Source: an uncultured Thermoleophilia bacterium
Lineage (GTDB): Bacteria > Actinomycetota > Thermoleophilia > UBA2241
Assembly: GCA_963767505.1 (NCBI GenBank)
Contig: CAVYDV010000008.1
Location: 166,937 to 230,936 of the forward strand
Length of the DNA stretch: 64,000 nt
Reading direction: 5' to 3'
Each line of letters opens with the position of its first letter. Position 1 is the first letter of the stretch. Below are positions 29,789 to 39,965 of the stretch, one piece after another. A model generated the notes under the pieces. That model ran no database searches and was not told where the DNA came from. It saw only the letters and a program-made list of their open reading frames with translations. A program made the translations under genes and the position numbers.

Positions 29789-30830
29789 GATCGGGAGCGT
29801 GGTGTTCCGTAGCGGCGGCAGGGTCCATGAGTTCGACGCCGGCAAGATGGAGCTCCGACTGGGCGACCGGGTCGTCGTCGACACCACGAAGGGGGCCGAT
29901 CTCGGCCGCCTGGTCAAGGGTCCCGAGGAGGTGCCGGCCGATCGGGCGCCACGGAGCCTCAAGAGGATCATCCGCAGGGCAACGCCAGACGATGAGCGTC
30001 TCGTCGAGTCGTATCGCCACATCGAGTGCGAGGCGAAGCGCGCCTGTCGCGACCTCGTCGCCGAGCTGGGGCTCGACATGAAGATCGTGGAGGCGCGCCA
30101 GGCTTTCGACGGAGGCAAGCTTACGATCACCTTCTTCGCGGAGGAGCGAGTCGACTTCCGCGGGCTCGTGAGTCGCCTGAACGAGCGGATCAAGCGTCGC
30201 GTCGAGCTGAGGCAGGTCAGCGCTCGCGAGGAGTCGCGGATGGTCGGCGGGTTCGGTCAGTGTGGTCGCAGCCTGTGTTGCGCCACGTTCGCCGGCAACC
30301 AGGAGCCCGTCTCCATCCGCATGGCCAAGGACCAGAGCCTGCCTCTCAACCCCACCAAGATCTCCGGCTGTTGCGGCCGTCTCATGTGCTGTCTCAAGTA
30401 CGAGCATCCGGTGTATGTGTCGTTCCGCAAGCGCGCCCCCAAGCGCGGGGCGATTGTCGCGACGCCCGGCGGGGAAGGAAGAGTCACGGACCTCCTGGCT
30501 CCGGTCGAGAGCGTCACTGTCGACCACGGCGAGGGGTGTTCCGCCACCTATCGGCTGGAGGATCTCGATCTCCCCGCTCGCCGAGAAGGAGTGACGATGA
30601 CCGCGACACAGGCGATCCTGGACGTGCCCGCCATCTCGTGTTCCCACTGCAAGATGGCCATCGAGGGCGCCGTCGGCGCCGTGGCCGGCGTCCAGCAGAC
30701 CGTCGTCGATGTGAGCGAGAAGAGCGTCACGATCGATTTCGACGCCGACCAGGTCACGCTCGACGCTCTGGAGGCCGCCGTGCGCGACGAGGGCTACGAA
30801 GTGGCTGGTCGGCGCGTGGTCGATCTCTGA
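29781..30830 (+). CDS. PSP1/RicT (YaaT)-domain protein continuous with a C-terminal HMA (CxxC) module; may be two genes (boundary at 30597)
   Basis: Track ORF, 349 aa. It has the PSP1 core with the Cys-rich block GQCGRSLCCATF...GCCGRLMCCLKYE. From ATG 30597, which is preceded by AAGGAG at 5 nt, it reads MTATQAILDVPAISCSHCKMAIEGAV...EGYEV, a CopZ-like HMA domain. A TGA in the +1 frame lies just before that ATG. Confidence 0.8.
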   Translation: MPRIGSVVFRSGGRVHEFDAGKMELRLGDRVVVDTTKGADLGRLVKGPEEVPADRAPRSLKRIIRRATPDDERLVESYRHIECEAKRACRDLVAELGLDMKIVEARQAFDGGKLTITFFAEERVDFRGLVSRLNERIKRRVELRQVSAREESRMVGGFGQCGRSLCCATFAGNQEPVSIRMAKDQSLPLNPTKISGCCGRLMCCLKYEHPVYVSFRKRAPKRGAIVATPGGEGRVTDLLAPVESVTVDHGEGCSATYRLEDLDLPARREGVTMTATQAILDVPAISCSHCKMAIEGAVGAVAGVQQTVVDVSEKSVTIDFDADQVTLDALEAAVRDEGYEVAGRRVVDL

Positions 30831-30899
30831 GTCGTGTCCCGCCCGCCGCGACGTTTGGCAAGACCGTGGCGGGCTGGTACGATGGCGCCCCGCGCACGT

Positions 30900-30975
30900 G
30901 GGCCGTTAGCTTAGCTGGTAGAGCAGGGGACTCTTAATCCCAAGGTCGAAGGTTCGAATCCTTCACGGCCCACCA
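30900..30975 (+). tRNA. tRNA-Lys (anticodon CUU), CCA encoded
   Basis: GGGCCGTTAGCTTAGCTGGTAGAGCAGGGGACTCTTAATCCCAAGGTCGAAGGTTCGAATCCTTCACGGCCCACCA. The anticodon loop is CTCTTAA. Confidence 0.95.
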
Positions 30976-31002
30976 GCCTCTCGCGAAGCTCCTGCAGACG
31001 AG

Positions 31003-31317
31003 CTACTTCCGGGGTGCCGGGCCGCATGCCCCGGAGGGCCGGGGCGTGCGTCCATCCTGCTGAGCTTCAGAGTGCGACCGGCGCCAGCGCTCAGCGGCTG
31101 CGGGGTGTGCCGGGCAGAGGGTCACCTGCTCCCCCTCGGCGTCGATGACGCGGTAGTCACGCGGGGCCGTCGCTCGAGGTCCGATGCCGCGATTGCTGCC
31201 GTCGAGCGCCAGAGCGACAGCCATGGCCACAGCCTCTTGGCGAGTCTCATACTCAGTCGGCAACGTCTTCCATCCGAGCGTGAGCTCGATCGACTTCTCC
31301 TGCAGTCTGTAGGTCAT
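31003..31317 (-). CDS. Orphan hypothetical ORF immediately downstream of the integrase fragment
   Basis: This is the 104-codon tail of track ORF 31003..31632(-), starting at ATG 31317, 2 nt after the integrase-fragment stop. I find no recognisable family. Coding status is uncertain. Confidence 0.25.
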   Translation of the reverse strand: MTYRLQEKSIELTLGWKTLPTEYETRQEAVAMAVALALDGSNRGIGPRATAPRDYRVIDAEGEQVTLCPAHPAAAERWRRSHSEAQQDGRTPRPSGACGPAPRK

Positions 31318-31319
31318 GA

Positions 31320-31541
31320 TCAGGCCCTCCCATCCGCAGGCGCCGCCACCATCTCCGCCGCCGACTCCTGCATGTCTGGGAGGACGTGACCGAACGTATG
31401 CATCGTGATGACGGTACTTGCGTGTCCGAGCCGTTCCTGGACGATCTGCGGATGGACGGCGGCACGCAGAGCGAGCGTCGCCCACGTGTGTCGCAGCTCG
31501 TGCAGCCTGAGCGGCGGCCTGTCGGCAGAGGGGCGTAGCAT
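31320..31541 (-). pseudogene. 3' fragment of a tyrosine recombinase (phage-type integrase)
   Basis: Track ORF 31320..31541(-) reads ...PPLRLHELRHTWATLAL...VQERLGHASTVITMHTFGHV, the C-terminal catalytic region (HxLRH ... LGH-x5-T-x3-Y-x-H). The position of the catalytic Tyr reads Phe. The frame is closed by a TGA just upstream and no N-terminal or core domain is present. It lies 345 nt from tRNA-Lys. Confidence 0.7.
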
Positions 31542-31694
31542 AGCCGTGGGTCAAGCGAAGAGCAACGGCGATGGTACGCGATCGCCGACCTCGGGCTGCC
31601 GACTGTGCGCGCACCGGCCATGCGGATATCATGCGGACTGGAGCGGATGGGGAGCGGCCGCAGCGCTCCCAGCGACGATGGAGGACCGCAGAGC

Positions 31695-31900
31695 ATGGAT
31701 GATGTGCTGGGAGTGATCGTGCAGGTGGCGGCCCTCGTGTTCGTGGTCTCCTCCATGCTGGCGATGGGCCTGAGCCTCACGATCACGCAGATCGTCGCCC
31801 CGCTCAAGAAGCTCAGGCTGGTGGTCGTGGCCCTGGTGCTCAACTTCGCCCTCGCCCCGCTGCTCGTCTGGGCCATCCAGGCGCTGCTCACCGTCGACGA
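31695..31900 (+). pseudogene. N-terminal fragment (about 70 codons) of a bile-acid:sodium symporter (BASS/SBF)-family transporter
   Basis: Within track ORF 31605..31976. GGAGG lies 10 nt before ATG 31695. MDDVLGVIVQVAALVFVVSSMLAMGLSLTITQIVAPLKKLRLVVVALVLNFALAPLLVWAI matches the first two helices of SBF-like transporters. The similarity then stops abruptly. Confidence 0.5.
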
Positions 31901-32474
31901 AGCCGGTGCCGATGTCATCGCCCCAGATGAACTCGACTACGCGTTCGATAGCACCGACGTAAGAGCAACGCCATGAAGCCTGCCCCCGTCGCGCCGGACC
32001 CAGAACCACTTCGAACGCGCGAAAGGCTGTCTGCCTCCGTTAGGACGTCCTCCGCGGTCGCATCGCTTGGCTGTGTTCGAGCATTCTGGCATATGCGCAA
32101 CCTCTGCACCACTGAGGAACAGCGCGGAGCCGTGGATGCTCGTCCGGGGTCGACCCCTGCTCCTCGTGCCTGCGCGGGGAGACCAACGGGTCTGGACAAG
32201 CTCCGCCCGAAATCGGGTAGGAGTGGGCAGAAGGAAGCGAGCGCACTCCAGGGAAGAGTAGGCTCAGATGAGACGAGAGCCGGACAGGGTAGGAGCCGAC
32301 GCAACGACCGTGGCCCATCCCTGACCTCGTGGTCGCGGGCGCGGATACATCTCGGCCTGCACCGGTCCGGTCTGGGGCCCTCGTTCGAGGCGGTCGTCAG
32401 TTGCCCGCCCGTTCGCCCCTCTGCTATCGTCTGTCGAGATATGGTGATGGTCGTGCAACCGCTGTGAGCAAGGC

Positions 32475-33293
32475 ATGGACGTGTCGGACAGGCAAATAGG
32501 CCCAACGGTGGGTCCGTACTTGGACGACACGCGCTTCTCGATCACCCCACGCGCCGCGGAGGACGTCCTTCGCCAGGGATTCCTGATGCTCGCCACCTAC
32601 GCCGCCTACGACTTCTCGCGGACGCTCGTCAAGGGTCGCCAGACGGTCGCCATGGAGAACGGCACCTTCTTCATGAATCTCGAGAAGGCCCTGGGCATGT
32701 ACTGGGAGCCGTGGATCCAGGCGCGGATCAGCGCCGTCGATCCGCTCATGAGCTTCCTCATCTGGGCCTACGACAGCTTCCATCTGCCGTTCATCATCGG
32801 GTCCCTGATATGGGTGTTCACGCAGCATCGCGATCGCTGGACGCTCTTCCGCAACTGGTTCCTGGGGATGAACTTCATGGCCCTCGTGATGTTCTACCTG
32901 CTGCCCACCGCGCCACCGCGGATGATCTTCACCTCGGGCATGGTCGATAGTCACTATCTGCACGGGGTGCGCTCCGAGATCTTCGACAACGGCATCTTGG
33001 GGAACCCGTACGCCGCCATGCCCAGCCTGCACTTCGGCTACGCGCTCTTCGTGGCGCTGATCCTCTGCCTGCTCGTTCGTCAGCGCTGGCTGCGCTGGGG
33101 AGCGTTCGCGTATCCGGTCCTCGTGCTGGTGAGCATCGTGGCGACCGGCAATCACTTCATCATCGACGCAGTCGCGGGCGGACTGGTGGTGCTGGCCGCG
33201 TACGTCTTCGCCGTGAACCTGCGGGCCGGCCAGTCCGGCAAGCTGATCGAGCCCGAACCGGCGGTCGTCCCTGTGCACGAACGCGACGGCTGA
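32475..33293 (+). CDS. PAP2-superfamily membrane protein (PAP2_3 / inositol-phosphotransferase-like)
   Basis: Track ORF, 272 aa, intact. It is polytopic, with APPRM...PSLHFGYALF...ATGNHFIIDAVAG, a PAP2-like phosphatase motif set (SxH ... NH..D). Confidence 0.75.
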   Translation: MDVSDRQIGPTVGPYLDDTRFSITPRAAEDVLRQGFLMLATYAAYDFSRTLVKGRQTVAMENGTFFMNLEKALGMYWEPWIQARISAVDPLMSFLIWAYDSFHLPFIIGSLIWVFTQHRDRWTLFRNWFLGMNFMALVMFYLLPTAPPRMIFTSGMVDSHYLHGVRSEIFDNGILGNPYAAMPSLHFGYALFVALILCLLVRQRWLRWGAFAYPVLVLVSIVATGNHFIIDAVAGGLVVLAAYVFAVNLRAGQSGKLIEPEPAVVPVHERDG

Positions 33294-33294
33294 C

Positions 33295-33903
33295 GTGACG
33301 GATCTCAAGACGCGCTACACGGACGGAGCTCGTCGCCGCTTCTTCAAGGTCGGCGTCGTGCTCGCCGGTCTCGGCGTCACGGCCGACATGCTCACCATCA
33401 CCGGCCTTCTTCTGCACGCCGTGGCGGTGCCGTTCATCGTCACCGGGCACTTCGTCACGGCGGCGGTCATCTCGGTCATCGCCGGCGTCTGCGATGCACT
33501 CGACGGCGCTGTGGCTCGGGCCGGGATCGGCGCCAGCAAGGCCGGGGCCTTCCTCGATTCGACCACCGATCGCATGTCCGAGATGCTGATCTGGGGCGCC
33601 CTGGTCATCTACATGGCCCGCCACGAACGCTGGTACGAGTGTGTCGCGGTGCTCGTCGCCATGGGGGCCGCCCAGCTCGTCTCGTACACGCGAGCCCGCG
33701 CCGAGGCGCTGGGCGTCGAATGCAAGGTCGGCCTGATGTCGCGTCCGGAGCGGATCGTCGTGCTCAACGTGGGGTTCCTGTTCTCCGCATGGTCCATCGG
33801 CGGTGTGAGCATCCTCACTATCGCCATCTACGCTCTCGCCGTGCTCACATCGGTGACCGTAGCTCAGCGGATGCGCCACGTCATGGGCACGCTGCGTCCC
33901 TGA
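33295..33903 (+). CDS. CDP-alcohol phosphatidyltransferase (phosphatidylinositol-phosphate synthase-like)
   Basis: Track ORF, 202 aa, intact. The GTG start is 1 nt after the PAP2 stop. It has the signature DALDGAVAR...GAFLDSTTDRMSE (D-x2-D-G-x2-A-R ... G-x3-D-x3-D). Confidence 0.85.
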   Translation: MTDLKTRYTDGARRRFFKVGVVLAGLGVTADMLTITGLLLHAVAVPFIVTGHFVTAAVISVIAGVCDALDGAVARAGIGASKAGAFLDSTTDRMSEMLIWGALVIYMARHERWYECVAVLVAMGAAQLVSYTRARAEALGVECKVGLMSRPERIVVLNVGFLFSAWSIGGVSILTIAIYALAVLTSVTVAQRMRHVMGTLRP

Positions 33904-34068
33904 GGACGATGCCCTCCGGCTGACGCGGAGGCCTGCGGCGTGCGCCACACGGCCCGTGATATACTCTCGCGCGTTGGCGCGAGCTCGCCCGGATCGTTCT
34001 GAGATCCCGCGAGCTCTGCGCATGAAGGCGGCCACTGAACGGCCGCAGAGAGCGGAGGTACACCAGTC

Positions 34069-35172
34069 TTGGGCAATCCAGTACGCGTGGCGATCATCGG
34101 CGTCGGCAACTGTGCGTCGTCGTTCGTGCAGGGCGTGGACTTCTACAAGAACGCCAGGAAGACGGACTTCGTCCCCGGCCTCATGCACCCCGTGGTCGGG
34201 GGCTATCACGTCCGCGACATCGAGTTCGTGGCGGCCATCGACATCGACAAGAACAAGGTCGGGAAGGACCTCAGCGAGGCCATCTTCACGAAGCCGAACA
34301 ACACCGTGAAGTTCTGCGACGTCCCCAAGAAGGACGTCAAGGTGGCCAGGGGCATGACGCACGACGGGCTCGGCAAGTACCTCTCGGAGATCATCGAGAA
34401 GGCTCCCGGCCCGACCGCCGACATCGTCGGCATCCTTCGCGAGACCCAGGCCGACGTGGTCGTCAACTACCTGCCCGTCGGCAGCGAAGAAGCCACGAAG
34501 TGGTACACGGAGCAGATCCTCACCGCGGGTTGCGCGATGGTCAATTGCATTCCCGTGTTCATCGCGCGCGAGCCGTACTGGCAGAAGCGCTTCGTCGAGG
34601 CCGGCGTCCCGGTGATCGGCGACGACATCAAGAGCCAGGTCGGCGCCACCATCGTCCATCGCGTACTCACGCGCCTCATGCGCGAGCGTGGCGTGCGGCT
34701 CGAGCGCACCAGCCAGCTCAACGTGGGTGGCAACACCGACTTCCTCAACATGCTCGAGCGCGAGCGGCTGGAGTCCAAGAAGATCAGCAAGACCAACGCC
34801 GTCACGAGCCAGCTCGACTACGACATGGGCGCCAAGAACGTCCACATCGGCCCGAGCGACTACGTGGAGTGGCTCGACGACCGCAAGTGGGCCTACATCC
34901 GCATGGAGGGCCGTACCTTCGGCGACGTTCCGCTCAACATCGAGCTCAAGCTCGAGGTGGTCGACTCGCCCAACTCTGCGGGCATCGTCATCGACGCGGT
35001 CCGCTGCGCCAAGATCGGCATGGACCGCGGCCTGGCGGGGGCGCTCGAGGGGCCGAGCAGCTACTTCATGAAGTCGCCGCCGGTGCAGCATCCGGACGAC
35101 CAGTGCCGCCAGATGACCGAGGGCTTCATACGCGGCGAGGGTCCCGGGGCGACCGCCGTCTGCCAGGGCTGA
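34069..35172 (+). CDS. ino1: myo-Inositol-1-phosphate synthase
   Basis: Track ORF, 367 aa, intact. The TTG start has GGAGG 10 nt upstream. [18 protein letters not shown]...VNYLPVGS...[12 protein letters not shown]...[11 protein letters not shown]... is typical of the short bacterial/archaeal MIPS. Confidence 0.95.
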
Positions 35173-35183
35173 GTCCCTCGCGA

Positions 35184-35218
35184 TACCGCAGCGCAGCCTC
35201 GTGCGTGGCGCTGCGGTA
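35184..35218 (+). other. Perfect 11-bp GC-rich hairpin between the ino1 stop and the pimA-PHP start
   Basis: TACCGCAGCGC (35184-35194), a 13-nt loop, then GCGCTGCGGTA (35208-35218). The right arm ends 2 nt before ATG 35221. There is no U-tract. Confidence 0.5.
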
Positions 35219-35220
35219 GC

Positions 35221-37203
35221 ATGGCGGTCATGAGGCGCAAGATAGGCATCCTGACGCCGTTCGTCTGGACGGCGCCGTCCGGCGTGAACCGCCAGGTGAG
35301 GGACCTGGCCGCTCGGCTCGTGGCGCGCGGGCACGTGGTGACCGTCATCGCCCCCAGCGCCGATCTCGCCCAGGTCGAGGACGCCAGGCGGCGCGTGGAG
35401 GCCGTGCTCACCGGGGAGCGCGAGTCGGTGTTCCTCGCCGACGAGCCGTCGCCGCGGTACTTCTTCGCGGGGGCCACGTACGGGGTGCGCTACAGCAGCA
35501 GCATCAAGCTGATCGCGGCACCCGCCGATCTGATGGCCAACATCGACGTCCTTCTTGAGGCGGAGGACTTCGACGTGCTGCACCTCATCGAGCCGTTCGT
35601 ACCCGGTCTGGGCTGGACCACCGTGCGCAATGCAAGCTGCCCACTGGTGGCGACGTTCCACGCCAATCCGGAACCCCTCACGCCCTTCTGGGCCACCCGG
35701 CCGCAGTTGCGCCGCCTGTTCGACTCGCTCGATGCTCCCATCGCCTCCTCGCAGGCGTCGCGTGACGCGGCAGCGACCGTCTTTCCGGGCGCCTATCGCG
35801 TGATCCCGCCGGGCGTCGATCTGGAGCGCTTCCGGCCCGGCGGCGCGAGAGAGCCGGGCCCGATGCGCCTGCTGTTCGCCGCCGCGGAATCGCGCCGCAA
35901 GGGACTGGGCGTGCTCCTGCGCGCCCTTCGCCTCCTCGAGGACCGCGCCGGTGAGCTCACGCTCGACGTCTGCGGCGCAGACAGCCAGATCCGGCGCTAT
36001 GCGCGTCTCGTCCCGCCGGCCTTCGAGGGGAGCGTGGTCTTCCACGGTCGCGTCTCGGAGGAGGGCATGGCGGATCTGTACCGGCGCGCGGACGTCTTCT
36101 GTGCTCCGTCGCTGGGCCCGGAGACGGCCGGCATGGCTCTGCTGGAGGCCATGGCCAGTGGTGACGCGGTCGTGGCCTCGCGCGTGCGCGGCTTCGATGA
36201 GGTGGTCCACGACGAGGTGGAAGGACTGCTCGTGGTGCCGCGCCGGCCGCGCTCTCTGGCGGCAGCTCTGCGGCGCCTGCTCGACGAGCCGTCCCTCTGC
36301 GCGAGCCTTGCTGGAGAGGGGTTGCGCAGCGTGCGCAAGTACGACTGGGACCGGGTCGCGGGCGCCATCGAGAGCGTGTACGAGGAGGTCGCGGCGCGCA
36401 GGCGCCAGCCGCTGCCGCGCCGCCGTCGCCAGCAGCGCGAGGTGTTCGCGGATTTCCACATCCACTCCCATCACAGCAAGGACTGCGTGATGCAGGTCGC
36501 CGACATCCTCGAGCGGGCCCGTGAGGTCGGACTCGACGTGATCGCGATCACCGACCACGACACGGCCGAGGGCGGTCTGGAGGCGCGCGAAGTAGCGGAT
36601 CGCTACGGAGTGCGCGTCATCGTTGGAGAGGAGGTCAAGACCAGCGAAGGGGAGGTCGTCGGCCTCTTCCTCGAGAAGACCATCCCCGGGGGGATGACGT
36701 TCGCGGCGACCATCGAGGCGATCAAGGAGCAGGGCGGCATCGTCTATGTGCCGCACCCGTTCGACCGTCTGCACACGATCCCCAGCCCTCGCGTGCTGCG
36801 CGCCAACGTTGCGGGCATCGACGTGCTCGAGGTGTTCAACTCGCGTCTGGCCTTCCCGGGGTTCAACGAGCTGGCGGAACGCTTCGCCCAGCGCTATCGG
36901 ATCCCGGCGGCGGCGGGCAGCGACTCGCACGTGCTGCCGGGCATCGGCACGGCTCTCTGCGGAATGGACGACTTCGAAGGACCGCACGATTTCGTCGCGG
37001 CTCTGGCCGAGAGCCGGATCGTGCGGCGGCCGCGCAGCCGGCTGTATCTGCAGTCCCTGAAGCTCCTTCAGACGACGATCGTCGGGACCAGGCAAGGCCG
37101 GCGAAGACCAAGAGCCGCCCGGATAGGCCGGACCCGCGCCGAAGTCGGTGGACGAGTCCGACAGCGCGCGAGGGATTTGCCGGCCTGGCGGCGAACTACC
37201 TAG
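35221..37203 (+). CDS. GT4 glycosyltransferase (PimA-like phosphatidylinositol mannosyltransferase) fused to a C-terminal PHP-family phosphoesterase domain
   Basis: Track ORF, 660 aa, no frame breaks. The N-terminal 400 aa has FDVLHLIEPFVP, PLVATFHAN, IPPGVD and FCAPSLGPETAGMALLEAMASGDAVVAS (the GT-B EX7E region), matching the PimA pattern. The C-terminal 240 aa has FADFHIHSHHSKD...VIAITDHDT...VYVPHPFD...GSDSH, the PHP metal-binding motifs. Confidence 0.85.
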   Translation: MAVMRRKIGILTPFVWTAPSGVNRQVRDLAARLVARGHVVTVIAPSADLAQVEDARRRVEAVLTGERESVFLADEPSPRYFFAGATYGVRYSSSIKLIAAPADLMANIDVLLEAEDFDVLHLIEPFVPGLGWTTVRNASCPLVATFHANPEPLTPFWATRPQLRRLFDSLDAPIASSQASRDAAATVFPGAYRVIPPGVDLERFRPGGAREPGPMRLLFAAAESRRKGLGVLLRALRLLEDRAGELTLDVCGADSQIRRYARLVPPAFEGSVVFHGRVSEEGMADLYRRADVFCAPSLGPETAGMALLEAMASGDAVVASRVRGFDEVVHDEVEGLLVVPRRPRSLAAALRRLLDEPSLCASLAGEGLRSVRKYDWDRVAGAIESVYEEVAARRRQPLPRRRRQQREVFADFHIHSHHSKDCVMQVADILERAREVGLDVIAITDHDTAEGGLEAREVADRYGVRVIVGEEVKTSEGEVVGLFLEKTIPGGMTFAATIEAIKEQGGIVYVPHPFDRLHTIPSPRVLRANVAGIDVLEVFNSRLAFPGFNELAERFAQRYRIPAAAGSDSHVLPGIGTALCGMDDFEGPHDFVAALAESRIVRRPRSRLYLQSLKLLQTTIVGTRQGRRRPRAARIGRTRAEVGGRVRQRARDLPAWRRTT

Positions 37204-37227
37204 CAGCAACTCGAGCCGAGGTATCGC

Positions 37228-37830
37228 GTGGCGCAACCCAACGAGATCTACGACAAGTACTTGACCCGAGCCATCTCGGAGATCAACGAGCTGACCGGCG
37301 AGATCCTGAGGTGCTCCCGCTGCCGCCACGCACGAGTCATGCCGGTGATCGGCTCGGGTCACCCGATGGCCGACATCTTCCTCCTCAAGTATCAGGCGCG
37401 TCCCTCCGAACTGCACGAGGGCGTGGCGTTCTTCGGTCGGAGCGGCGCCGCCCTCATGAAGAGCTGCCAGCGGCTGAAGATAGACCCGCTTCAGCTGTAC
37501 GGCACGAACGTCGTCAAGTGCGGAGACGTGCAGGAGACGCGACCGGAGAGCAAATGCCTGGAGCATCTTCACCGCGAACTGGCGGCCGTGAACCCCAAGC
37601 TCATCGTGGCGATGGGGGAGGAGACGGTGGCGGCCCTGAACGACGCGGACGTACCGATCGGTCGGCAGCTCGAGTACAGACCCGGCGAGATCCTCGACTT
37701 CACGCCGGGCACCCAGGCTCTCATCACCCCGGACATCGATGCATCTCTCGACGAGCAGCGCCTCAAAGCCGAGTTCTGGCAAGCCTTCCGCAGGCTCGGT
37801 GAGTGGTACGAGAGCATCCCGCCGTACTGA
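37228..37830 (+). CDS. Uracil-DNA glycosylase superfamily protein (family 4/5-like)
   Basis: Track ORF, 200 aa, GTG start, intact. It contains CSRC...GSGHPMADIFLL...GVAFFGRSGAAL...NVVKC... Confidence 0.75.
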   Translation: MAQPNEIYDKYLTRAISEINELTGEILRCSRCRHARVMPVIGSGHPMADIFLLKYQARPSELHEGVAFFGRSGAALMKSCQRLKIDPLQLYGTNVVKCGDVQETRPESKCLEHLHRELAAVNPKLIVAMGEETVAALNDADVPIGRQLEYRPGEILDFTPGTQALITPDIDASLDEQRLKAEFWQAFRRLGEWYESIPPY

Positions 37831-37855
37831 GGCGGGGAGCCGCCTCGCGCTTGCC

Positions 37856-38588
37856 GTGAGCGCGGGCGTCCTCCTCGTCGTCTGGGGCTTCGCCAGCCGA
37901 CTGCTGCCGGCGCTGCCCGTCAGTCTCAACGTGCATGCTCTCCTCGGCTATCTCACTGACGCTCATGGCGGCGATCGTGTGGGGCCTTGTGCCCTCTGGC
38001 CGCGCTCGGCAGGCGACTGCTGCTGATCGTCGCCGTGGCCTTGCCCTTGGCGATGCTTCTTGTGTGGCTCGGAGCGGTCCCGTTCGCCAACCTCGCCAAG
38101 ATCGTGGCCGCCGCCGCTTTCGGACTCTGGATCGCCGCCGAGATCGAACGGGTCAGCTGGATCATCGTCGTGGCCGTGGTCTCCGCCGTGACCGACATCG
38201 TGAGCGTCGCCATCGGGCCGACGCAGGAAGATCCTGGATGACGGGCCGGTGCTCATCGGCTATTTCGCCGTGATCATGACGTGGTTCGGGTACGCGTGGA
38301 GCGAGGCTCACTCCGCCATCGGCATGAGCGACGTCATCTTCTTCGCGCTCTATCTGGGGGCGGCACGGAGCTTCGGGCTGCGCGAACGACTGAGCGCCGT
38401 GGTCATGATCGCCTCGTTCCTCGTGACCCTGGCCGTGGCGATGTGGTGGACGGCACTACCGGCGCTGCCGCTGCTCTCGCTCTCGTTCCTGGCCGTGAAC
38501 GCCGATCTGCTGTGGCGCGGCGCGAGGCCCGGCGCCGACGCGCGCGCCGCCGGCCTTCCGCAGAGCTCGCGAACAGCCTCAGTCCTGA
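37856..38588 (+). CDS. Polytopic membrane protein with TD / GMSD / PAL motifs (possible GxGD-type intramembrane protease); 3 or more apparent frameshifts, both ends uncertain
   Basis: Hydrophobic segments are spread over track ORFs 37739..38026, 37935..38273, 37987..38241 (...VVAVVSAVTDIVSVAIGPT) and 38249..38989 (...HSAIGMSDVIFFALYLGAA...WWTALPALPLLSLSF...). Beyond about 38580 the open frame is antisense to the rlmD-like gene. Confidence 0.45.
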
Positions 38589-39965
38589 CGGACGAAGAGC
38601 GCCACCGTCTCGACGTGGTGCGTCTGCGGGAACATGTCGACGGGTGCGACGCGCTCGAGGCGGTAGCCGTGCTCGCACAGCTCCGCCCCGTTGCCGGCCA
38701 GCGTCGTGGGGTTGCACGACACGTAGACGAAGCGGTCGGCGCCGAGGGCGGCGGCACGCTGCAGCGCCTTGCGGGCCATGCCCGCGCGCGGCGGATCGAC
38801 GATCACCACGGATGGACGCTCGGCCGTTCGCTGGCGCTCGGCGTCCAGCGTGGGGTGGGGAGGGAACCTGAGCAACGGCCGCACGTCCTTCGCATGGAAG
38901 TCGGCGTTGAGGACTCCGTTGAGCGAGGCGTTGACGCGCGCCGCCGCGATCGCCTCGTCCTGGATCTCGACGGCCTGCACGGTCCGTAGCGATGAGCGCC
39001 AGCGGGAGGCTGAGAGAGCCGATGCCGCAGTAGAGGTCGACGGCGGGGCGGGCTCCGTCCGGAGAGGCGAACTCGAGCGCCGTCGCGTAGAGGACTTCGC
39101 ACATCTCGCTGTTCGTCTGCAGGAAGGCCGTCGCGGGCACTCGGAGGTCGACGCCGGCAAGCGTCTCGTGCAGGTACGGCTCTCCCAGGAGCATGAAGGG
39201 GCCGTCGCCGACAGCGGCGTCGGCGGGGGTGGAGTTGACGGTGACGCCGAACGACGTGCAGCCGGACTCGGCCGCGACTCTCTCGAGCAGCTCCTCCTCC
39301 TCGGAGAAGCGGGACTTCACGAACAGGTTGAGCAGCAGGTCGCCGCCGCTTCCTTCGCGCACGACGAGGTGCCTGAGCAGTCCCGTGGCGTCGTCGCGCG
39401 AGTATGGCGGCAGGTCCAGGGCGCGACAGGCTTCGGCAACGGCAGTGCGGGCTCGCACCATGCGCTCCGAGGCGATCCGACAGGCCGACGTCTCGACGAT
39501 CTCGTTCCAGGAGCCGCGGCGGTGCAGGCCGAGCAGCAGCTCGCCGCCGGGAGTCTGACCGAACGAGAACTCCATCTTGTTGCGGTAGCGCCACGGATCG
39601 TCCATGCGGCGGATCGGGTCGAGCGCGTAGCCCTCGAGGCGCCCGATGTGCTGCAGAGACTCGACCACCTGGCGCTGCTTGAACTCGAGCTGGGCGTCGT
39701 ACGACAAGGTCTGCCACTCGCAGCCGCCGCACTCCGCGGCGTGGGCGCAGAGCGGCGGGACGCGTCGTGGGGAGGGGGTGAGCGTCTCGATGACCCGCGC
39801 CTCGGCATGGCTGCGTTTGCGCTTGGTCACCCGTGCCCGGACGCGATCGCCCGGGACGGCGCCGCGGACGAAGACGACGAAGTCGTCGAGTCGTGCGACG
39901 CCCTGCCCGCCGTAGGCGAGCGAGTCGACGTCGAGTTCGACGATGTCTCCGGTGCGTGGCGGCAT
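38579..39965 (-). CDS. 23S rRNA (uracil-C5)-methyltransferase, RlmD/TrmA family, with TRAM domain and 4-Cys cluster; one apparent frameshift near 38990
   Basis: Track ORF 38403..39965 holds TRAM (GDIVELDVDSLAYGGQGVARL), the Cys cluster (CAHAAECGGCEWQ) and DLYCGIGSLSLPLA. ORF 38579..39160 holds VIVDPPRAGM...YVSCNPTTLA...DMFPQTHHVE. Confidence 0.85.

Follow-up and report, generated by a model that had tools for sequence, protein, structure and literature searches.

Inositol-lipid synthesis in bacteria

The closest known counterparts of the locus considered here include those of mycobacteria and Bacteroides. In the mycobacterial pgsA1-patA-pimA locus (Rv2612c-Rv2610c), a synthase for phosphatidylinositol phosphate (PIP) is linked to a PimA-family GT4 glycosyltransferase, and the pathway to phosphatidylinositol (PI) runs via PIP; the phosphatase required for this step in actinobacteria has been known to be missing since 2010, was still described as unidentified in July 2026, and EphE is only a proposed candidate (bioRxiv 10.64898/2026.07.15.738315), so that the sequence-only reading of the present locus was right to treat the step as unassigned. 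In Bacteroides thetaiotaomicron, the cluster BT_1522-BT_1526 comprises a myo-inositol-phosphate synthase (MIPS), a PIP synthase, the PAP2-like PI-dihydroceramide synthase BT_1522 and a PIP phosphatase (Heaver et al. 2022, PMC9246714). The latter, the PgpA-family protein BT_1525, is the only genetically identified PIP phosphatase of bacteria; its knockout accumulates PIP, and the authors term it 'most probably' a PIP phosphatase (PMC9246714). Here we analyse positions 32475-37203 of a 64,000-nt stretch of DNA (68 % GC) from an uncultured Thermoleophilia bacterium, the whole of which we call the window. They hold a putative PI synthesis operon that encodes a PAP2_3 membrane protein, a PIP synthase (PIPS), the inositol-phosphate synthase Ino1 and a fusion of a GT4 domain with a PHP phosphoesterase domain, a candidate for the enzyme that dephosphorylates PIP in this class.

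Thermoleophilia should possess such an activity. In Conexibacter PI predominates among the polar lipids (PMC3035278), and PI plus phosphatidylinositol mannoside (PIM) has been reported in Solirubrobacter (PMC10722151); cultured members of the class thus contain PI and PIM, and PIP must therefore be dephosphorylated. PgpA (PF04608) was found in none of 41 genomes, the window's own included, whereas controls such as B. thetaiotaomicron score. These 41 relatives cover the window's genus and six other families of the class (seven families in all). IMPase-family genes are present in 39 of them, so the role of a soluble inositol phosphatase is covered already.

Set beside the Bacteroides cluster, the window's locus offers the same functional set (MIPS, PIPS, a PAP2-like putative transferase and a putative phosphatase), with a PHP domain in the slot that BT_1525 fills there. 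Its PAP2_3 protein differs from BT_1522, scoring only 25 bits against the model of bacterial PI-dihydroceramide synthases of the BT_1522 type (NF052609, cut-off 480). With the mycobacterial locus it shares the type of PIP synthase and the linkage of this enzyme to a GT4 of the PimA family; in contrast to that locus, the Thermoleophilia operon includes ino1 and an attached PAP2_3 gene, and its GT4 is a PimA paralogue that carries the PHP domain. A PatA-type acyltransferase (PF03279), taken as a sign of the mycobacterial pathway to acylated PIM (AcPIM), was detected in only one of the 41 relatives.

A class-wide fusion in the probable PI operon

The four open reading frames (ORFs) run in the same direction on the plus strand, in the order PAP2_3, PIPS, Ino1 and GT4::PHP. 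As the sequence-only reading had described, they are closely spaced, with successive gaps of 1, 165 and 48 nt, and the motifs that it cited for the transferase (D-x2-DG-x2-AR...D-x3-D) and for the PHP domain (HIHSHHS, DHD, HPFD, GSDSH) can all be read from the translations. The first two genes meet at TGA-C-GTG. GC content at third codon positions is 0.87-0.94, as in real genes of so GC-rich a window.

Judged by its nearest solved relatives, the CDP-alcohol transferase is of the PIP-synthase type, as originally assigned. The complete motif D-x2-D-G-x2-A-R...G-x3-D-x3-D is present, reading D67-x2-D70-G71-x2-A74-R75...D88-x3-D92, and the best match in the Protein Data Bank (PDB) is M. tuberculosis PgsA1 (6h53, E 3e-19). 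The PIPS of M. kansasii and R. salmoninarum come next, the three spanning E 3e-19 to 5e-15, with E 1.6e-15 for the PIPS structure 5d92. Identification as a DIPP, phosphatidylglycerophosphate (PGP) or phosphatidylserine (PS) synthase was considered and ruled out: DIPP synthase 4mnd reaches only E 1.4e-4, and the pgsA (PGP) and pssA (PS) models only about 24 bits. Two NCBIfam equivalog models score below their cut-offs, namely PIPS (NF045883, 128 against 170) and archaetidylinositol-phosphate (AIP) synthase (NF040950, 142 against 180). The assignment of the third gene to Ino1, which had likewise been made before, is unambiguous from its matches: the actinobacterial INO1 model TIGR03450 aligns over its full length (positions 1-355 of 355) with 551 bits, under the equivalog cut-off of 638, and orthologues in all related loci are 69-95 % identical.

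The fourth gene (35221-37203) encodes the two GT4 domains, N and C, and after them PHP and PHP_C, all without a break in frame. The concern that such a fusion might be confined to one assembly is answered by its distribution. It is found in all 41 relatives, at 74-81 % identity within the window's genus and 28-42 % in the six other families, and the fused frame is single and open in every relative locus that was fetched. A further scan with one genome per species gave at least 597 matches; among the best 80 of these, all from Thermoleophilia (Solirubrobacterales, Thermoleophilaceae and others), 79 carry the uninterrupted frame. Similarly, among 5.8 billion proteins searched, more than 120 clusters (about 630 aa; 57-98 % identity) combine these same Pfam domains, and their named members are Thermoleophilia or metagenome-assembled genomes of Actinomycetota. 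Among 151 genomes spread over Actinomycetota, a PHP domain of the operon type within a long frame occurs in Thermoleophilia only. The fusion thus characterises the class and did not arise through an indel in one assembly. An assembly or indel artefact that joined two genes was considered, with a single indel of the window, at 37087, in its favour; since this indel lies past both domains and the single ORF recurs in many independent assemblies, the explanation has next to no chance and was rejected. A search of the available literature library turned up no paper on the fusion.

Synteny points in the same direction. The order PIPS-Ino1-GT4::PHP is conserved in all seven families sampled, and across the 41 relatives and the 80 further genomes the fusion almost always lies downstream of PIPS and Ino1. 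PIPS is present in 40 of the 41 relatives, always at this locus beside the fusion, the exception being one genome (G030) to which we return below. Gene content, synteny, conservation, folds and the lack of PgpA are direct observations; that the locus is the PI synthesis operon of a Thermoleophilia bacterium is our best reading of them, and all substrates and activities given here are deduced.

The PHP domain as the constant partner

Residue conservation was assessed in an alignment of 94 fusions together with PimA. The putative metal ligands of the PHP domain (H413, H415, D421, H446, E471, H512, D568 and H570) are kept in 92-94 of the 94 sequences. Identity to the window in distant members is 53 % for the PHP domain versus 30-32 % for the two GT4 lobes, and within the family 87 % versus 64-74 %; by this measure the PHP domain is the constrained half of the fusion. 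Its AlphaFold2 model is of high confidence (predicted local distance difference test, pLDDT, 92.5), and all top fold neighbours are PHP enzymes.

In a lineage of Gaiellales the domain stands alone. An exhaustive search yielded a representative of 226 aa (P0288) encoded directly after an ino1 fragment; it belongs to a family of more than 100 clusters of 224-226 aa, the named members of which are Gaiellales. Long contigs from this lineage reveal the order PAP2_3 - PIPS - Ino1 - PHP - UDG, with the PHP gene starting 4 nt after ino1 and its metal ligands intact, and no GT4 was present anywhere in this locus on these contigs. Because this lineage keeps PAP2_3-PIPS-Ino1-PHP without a GT4, the partner that PIPS and Ino1 constantly have is the PHP domain rather than the glycosyltransferase.

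The sequence-only reading had proposed the PHP domain as the PIP phosphatase on the ground that it is fused to the enzyme consuming PI. The case does not mainly rest on that argument, as the GT4 has lost donor-site residues outside the window's family and is absent from the Gaiellales lineage; the candidacy itself has stronger and partly different support, from conservation and from the Gaiellales operon. The PHP domain, which accompanies PIPS and Ino1 more constantly than the other proteins, is best conserved and keeps its ligands, is the best candidate for PIP dephosphorylation.

The operon PHP proteins form a recognisable subfamily, tied to PIPS-Ino1 in hundreds of genomes, fused and unfused, with a signature of DRxH..P, NPR and a C-terminal YLQSLK helix. 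This helix, predicted at residues 607-622, is conserved in two alignments and absent from the stand-alone PHP proteins of other actinobacterial classes. A role as a strong amphipathic membrane anchor was considered for it and rejected, the hydrophobic moment being moderate here (0.43-0.54) and weak in other families (0.16-0.28).

The GT4 half as a paralogue of PimA

By sequence, PimA (2gej) is the best match of the GT4 half (128 bits, E 4e-36), and in a Foldseek comparison the PimA structures 4n9w and 2gej rank first, at template-modelling (TM) scores of 0.82-0.85. In a maximum-likelihood tree, however, the fused GT4 domains constitute one clade, apart from M. smegmatis PimA and the stand-alone PimA-like genes (96 % support in the Shimodaira-Hasegawa-like approximate likelihood-ratio test, SH-aLRT). 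Within that clade, the branch of the window's family has diverged least. Most relatives carry a second, stand-alone PimA-like gene, 35-39 % identical to the fused domain; that of genome G002 (locus L035) scores 214 bits to 2gej over its full length, versus 128 for the fused domain. These relationships indicate that the GT4 half is a PimA paralogue and not an orthologue. Of the earlier description as a PimA-like GT4 fused in frame to a complete PHP domain, the single frame is borne out, while equating the GT4 with PimA itself is not. In G002, a genome of the window's genus, the stand-alone PimA orthologue was seen in a lipid cluster of the order GT4 - LPG_synthase_TM - PlsY - PimA-like (L035 2068-6230, G002:C9).

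The two lobes of the glycosyltransferase have fared differently. Across the 94 fusions H147 (H118 in PimA) is present in 91 and N23 (Q18) in 88; of the donor-site residues, K227 (K202) is retained in 15, E301 (E274) in 15 and E309 (E282) in 21. The three occur together in only 12 of the 94 sequences, which make up the window's family and share 62 % identity or more with the window. Over most of Thermoleophilia the GT4 half thus resembles a pseudo-glycosyltransferase with its acceptor-side lobe retained. The window's own domain keeps the GT-B fold of M. smegmatis PimA (2gej/4n9w) and the equivalents of G16 (G21), H118, K202, E274 and E282. It differs from PimA in its separate clade, its fusion to PHP and several residues that are not conserved (for their roles in PimA, see Guerin et al. 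2007): the equivalent of R196 is Ala, with an extra Arg in SRRKG; the equivalent of N97 is not kept; and the segment aligned with the basic membrane-binding helix (R77/K78/K80/K81) reads ANIDVLLEAE, without basic residues. The window's GT4 half looks catalytically competent, with the Ala in place of R196 as a reservation.

A bifunctional enzyme, PIP phosphatase and PI glycosyltransferase in one, is plausible in this window because its GT4 half still looks active. In the window's genus, no other PimA-like gene was found in G007 (100 % complete), G010 and G021, and none was seen in the window's own genome, which is only 78 % complete. As the sugar site is kept and a second PimA is lacking from some of the genus's complete genomes, the GT4 of the window's family probably glycosylates PI.

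A glycosyltransferase followed by a phosphatase in one polypeptide is the architecture of known two-step pathways. In the SPS-SPP and TPS-TPP fusions a glycosyltransferase is joined to a HAD-type phosphatase of the consecutive step, acting on soluble substrates. The window's protein likewise would unite a glycosyltransferase and a phosphatase of consecutive steps; it differs in that its phosphatase is of the PHP type, and in the proposed scheme dephosphorylation may precede glycosyl transfer. By analogy, the fusion might be a synthase/phosphatase pair working on soluble inositol-3-phosphate, as MshA plus the unassigned MshA2 or SPS/SPP would, and making a glycosyl-inositol solute or a thiol precursor. 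Its gene does lie downstream of ino1, and MshA is the second-best family for the GT4 half in both sequence and fold. PimA nevertheless scores twice as high (128 bits versus 56-66 for MshA-type entries), the nearest GT4 relatives are PimA-like, and PIPS is always in the operon; moreover, the GT4 donor site is decayed in most lineages and the whole GT4 absent in the Gaiellales lineage, while the PHP domain stays beside PIPS. We regard a soluble substrate as very unlikely.

A putative PIP 3-phosphatase

The route that we propose starts from Ino1, which would make inositol-3-phosphate. The PIP synthase would join this to cytidine-diphosphate diacylglycerol (CDP-diacylglycerol), a reaction on the cytoplasmic side of the membrane that would yield phosphatidylinositol-3-phosphate (PIP). 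The PHP domain, as a multinuclear metal phosphoesterase within a soluble, peripheral protein, would then hydrolyse the 3-phosphate of PIP, or of glycosylated PIP, to yield PI, and the N-terminal PimA-derived GT-B domain would place the enzyme at the membrane, on the headgroup of the inositol lipid. In the window's family, where the nucleotide-sugar site is retained, the GT4 probably also glycosylates PI to a PIM1-like lipid, which would make the protein bifunctional. Finally, PAP2_3, most likely an Aur1/Ipt1-type transferase, would move phosphoinositol from PI to another acceptor at the outer face.

PIPS and PimA act at the cytoplasmic face of the membrane. No transmembrane segment is predicted in the fusion protein, the model of the whole two-domain fusion is confident (pLDDT 84.7; predicted TM score, pTM, 0.82), and the linker is basic in all families, following an invariant R393 and a nearly invariant R394 (two alignments). 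These features fit a peripheral enzyme at that face.

On balance we lean slightly towards the PHP domain being a PIP 3-phosphatase, bifunctional with PI glycosylation in this lineage. The wider proposal, that the operon PHP subfamily is the PIP 3-phosphatase of Thermoleophilia and that an active GT4 in the window takes PIP via PI to glycosyl-PI on a single polypeptide, is more tentative, and we put it at somewhat under an even chance.

Several observations weigh against these proposals. To our knowledge no PHP-fold enzyme of solved structure acts on a lipid, the nearest being nucleotide or RNA phosphoesterases or uncharacterised proteins. Relatives of the PHP domain also occur far from inositol-lipid genes: stand-alone homologues from other actinobacterial classes (38-43 % identical) adjoin purD/purB/purQ or LCP genes, P0328 adjoins a MurJ-like gene, and a metagenome scan with an alignment of five sequences showed 80 of 80 P0319-type loci to be without PIPS, Ino1 or GT4 within 6 kb, their context being aroQ-pepP-efp-PHP-formyltransferase-HAD-PfkB. 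Taken as a whole, the PHP family is thus not reserved for inositol lipids. R196 is also not conserved in the window's GT4, which makes its glycosyltransferase activity uncertain.

More direct counter-evidence comes from one family of the class, f2. In genomes G025, G035 and G040 the PHP ligands are replaced (HxH by RxR, DH by AP or SP, D..H by A..A) and Pfam no longer recognises the domain, while PIPS and Ino1 are kept; G035 is also without PAP2_3. In G030, of the same family, the order is PIPS - GT4 (N-lobe only) - UDG, and the PHP domain is gone. No replacement phosphatase was found nearby, beside the operon, in the f2 genomes with a dead PHP domain. At least in f2, another enzyme must thus dephosphorylate PIP, or PIP stays unprocessed.

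The f2 fusions (L028 in G040, L029 in G035 and L030 in G025) have also lost the K and E residues of the GT4 and have kept their place after PIPS and Ino1; they may be double pseudoenzymes or genes in decay. Taken further, a gene that keeps its position with both halves apparently dead could suggest that the fusion is mainly a non-catalytic partner or regulator of PIP synthase, its catalysis dispensable. The retention of the eight metal ligands in nearly all fusions and in the stand-alone Gaiellales proteins speaks against this, and the truncated gene of G030, which has already lost its PHP part, suggests decay in f2 and not a conserved scaffold; we consider a mainly non-catalytic role distinctly improbable.

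The structural neighbours of the PHP domain raise a different possibility, namely that it is a nucleotide or RNA phosphoesterase (like RNase AM or the pAp phosphatases, or else a CMP/CDP-related hydrolase) whose place in the operon reflects something else. Its fold neighbours are the uncharacterised TM0559, RNase AM, PsfC, BAD_1165 and the pAp phosphatase Cv1693, and RNase AM, Cv1693 and BAD_1165 are the nearest characterised proteins by fold and sequence, with sequence similarity to solved PHP enzymes weak throughout (E 1e-8 at best). With TM0559 (2anu), the PHP domain of RNase AM (7ug9, 9etk), Cv1693 (2yb1) and BAD_1165 (3e0f) it shares the barrel and the HxH/D/H/E/H/D-x-H ligands. The housekeeping contexts of related compact PHP proteins and the DNA-repair gene of the UDG type as conserved downstream neighbour would agree with such a function. 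The comparison of lengths, on the other hand, shows that RNase AM and Cv1693 (about 290 aa) contain an insertion domain without counterpart in the window's PHP domain, which has Glu (E478) at the place aligning beside a His of Cv1693. It differs from the compact PHP proteins in its own C-terminal helix and its lipid-synthesis context, and the signature of the operon subfamily, together with its tie to PIPS-Ino1, sets it apart as well. A nucleotide or RNA substrate is therefore unlikely in our view, and PIP remains the substrate that we favour.

A general tie of compact PHP proteins to inositol-lipid genes outside the class was also looked for and was not reproduced, the homologues lying in unrelated contexts. 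A subgroup of compact PHP proteins of about 215-220 aa with a basic C-terminal helix was observed on metagenome contigs in the conserved aroQ-pepP-efp-PHP string (L158, L159, L168, L172, L192 and L210).

If the assignment is true, the PHP superfamily would gain its first lipid-phosphate phosphatase, one that stands in non-orthologously for the PgpA-type enzyme known from Bacteroides; confirmation would also document a glycosyltransferase turned into a substrate-targeting pseudoenzyme. The mycobacterial case would not be solved by this alone, as the PHP subfamily occurs only in Thermoleophilia among the phylum genomes sampled. The locus offers an easily cloned candidate in the soluble stand-alone form of about 225 aa, conserved in hundreds of genomes, and natural controls exist in the lineages with a dead PHP domain, those that have no GT4, and those with a GT4 site either intact or decayed.

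The PAP2_3 membrane protein

The founding members of the Pfam family PAP2_3 are yeast Aur1, the inositol-phosphorylceramide (IPC) synthase, and Ipt1. Across 33 orthologues of the window's protein the motifs APPR, PSxH and NHxxxD are invariant, as is the His-His-Asp set H186, H227 and D231. A PDB search with the window's sequence alone gave no match; a profile of the orthologues found yeast AUR1 as best, weak match (E 0.028). The motifs P-x-A-P-P-[RW], P-S-[LM]-H and H-x-x-x-D of Aur1 align with those of the window, which differs in having Arg for Trp in APP[RW]. At least four hydrophobic segments are present, and a rough estimate from hydropathy and the positive-inside rule places the catalytic loops opposite the basic loops, so that they probably lie on the outer face.

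The sequence-only reading had named this protein as the alternative PIP phosphatase. The PAP2 superfamily does include lipid-phosphate phosphatases, and PAP2_3 could act on PIP as PgpB acts on PGP, leaving the PHP domain to do something else. Its gene is translationally coupled to PIPS across the 1-nt gap and precedes PIPS in about 60 of the 80 further loci and in the Gaiellales operon; R149, invariant within APPR, is reminiscent of the Arg that binds phosphate in PAP2 motif C1; and among the PDB matches the phosphatase LpxE, also weak, scores almost as well as AUR1 (E 0.046). It is missing, however, from 10 of the 41 relatives that keep PIPS (31 have it), among them G007, G010 and G015 of the window's genus (100, 95 and 93 % complete) and every genome sampled from family f6, three in number (G029, G034 and G039). 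In addition, its family is that of the Aur1/Ipt1 transferases, the prediction places its catalytic loops across the membrane from the basic, cytoplasmic loops although PIP arises at the cytoplasmic face, and its paralogues are paired or fused with other GT4 genes. PAP2_3 is thus a poor candidate, and its being the PIP phosphatase is quite unlikely. The other option raised for it fits better: it is most likely an accessory inositol-phosphotransferase that would use PI.

Paralogues of PAP2_3 adjoin PimA-like GT4 genes in G030 (G030:C1:475860-477656, L143; G030:C1:1467885-1469713, L144) and G025 (G025:C26:12657-14563), and one of the G030 pairs lies in a 1024-aa open frame as an apparent GT4-PAP2_3 fusion, which suggests a recurrent module of glycosyltransferase and inositol-phosphotransferase. 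The sole PatA-type gene among the 41 relatives (G036:C1:376701-378160, L225) is located directly upstream of a PAP2_3 paralogue.

Further features of the locus

The coordinates of the genes, domains and signals are collected in Table 1.

Table 1. Features of the putative PI synthesis operon, in positions of the window
Feature	Position	Strand	Basis or remark
PAP2_3 integral membrane protein, 272 aa, Aur1/Ipt1-like	32475..33293	+	PF14378, 152 bits
Predicted phosphatidylinositol-phosphate synthase (CDP-alcohol phosphatidyltransferase), 202 aa	33295..33903	+	PF01066 CDP-OH_P_transf, 54 bits
GGAGG ribosome-binding site	34054..34058	+	10 nt before the TTG start of ino1; direct reading of the sequence
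myo-Inositol-3-phosphate synthase (Ino1), 367 aa	34069..35172	+	PF01658 Inos-1-P_synth, 129 bits; TTG start
Perfect 11-bp inverted repeat TACCGCAGCGC...GCGCTGCGGTA	35184..35218	+	between the ino1 stop and the ATG of the fusion; direct reading
PimA-like GT4 (GT-B) domain of the fusion, residues 1-395	35221..36405	+	Pfam GT4 N and C domains
Arg-rich interdomain linker QPLPRRRRQQREVF	36406..36447	+	after the conserved R393 and R394 at the end of the GT4 domain
Compact PHP + PHP_C domain, predicted metal-dependent phosphoesterase, residues 410-600	36448..37020	+	PF02811, PF13263
Conserved C-terminal helix R-x-x-S-x-x-Y-L-Q-S-L-K-L-L-Q-T	37021..37086	+	restricted to the inositol-operon PHP subfamily
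One-base insertion (A at 37087), then out-of-frame Arg-rich tail	37087..37203	+	comparison with P0005; three-frame translation

The length of the fusion, given as 660 aa when the single ORF was first described, needs correction. The relative P0005 is 98 % identical up to residue 622 and departs from the window's protein right after it; P0005 and other relatives end about 12 residues past TTIVG. The tail of P0005, GPGKAGEDQEPPG followed by a stop, is readable in another frame of the window, with the stop codon TAG at 37124-37126. The extra A lengthens the ORF from about 634 codons, the native length, to 660; the last 12 or so native codons are shifted, and 26 codons of Arg-rich sequence are added. 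The extra base may reflect either a true mutation or a fault of the assembly. It leaves the two domains, which precede it, untouched, and only the unconserved tail, predicted to be disordered (pLDDT below 50 from residue 623), is altered.

Between ino1 and the fusion, the inverted repeat, with a loop of 13 nt, fills the 48-nt spacer, leaving no Shine-Dalgarno sequence outside the stem. A search of Rfam for riboswitches or other known RNAs gave no match in 30000-39000, a range that includes the hairpin area and the 165-nt spacer between PIPS and ino1.

Housekeeping genes flank the operon, with topA, tmk, holB, a PSP1-domain gene and tRNA-Lys on its upstream side and a gene of the UDG family on the other. 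This UDG-superfamily gene (37228-37830) follows the fusion, or else the stand-alone PHP gene, as a conserved neighbour in several families of the class, occurring also at L029 8867-9514, L142 9407-10084 and L250 7790-8449; a functional tie to inositol lipids is not apparent. Upstream, the roughly 1.5 kb between tRNA-Lys and PAP2_3 (31000-32474) hold no convincing gene. ORFs 31973-32467, 31003-31632 and 31915-32505, the latter two on the minus strand, have no Pfam match, and ORF 31605-31976 matches SBF (bile-acid/Na+ symporter) weakly, over profile positions 3-52 of 191 only; the stretch may represent a decayed transporter gene plus a promoter region.

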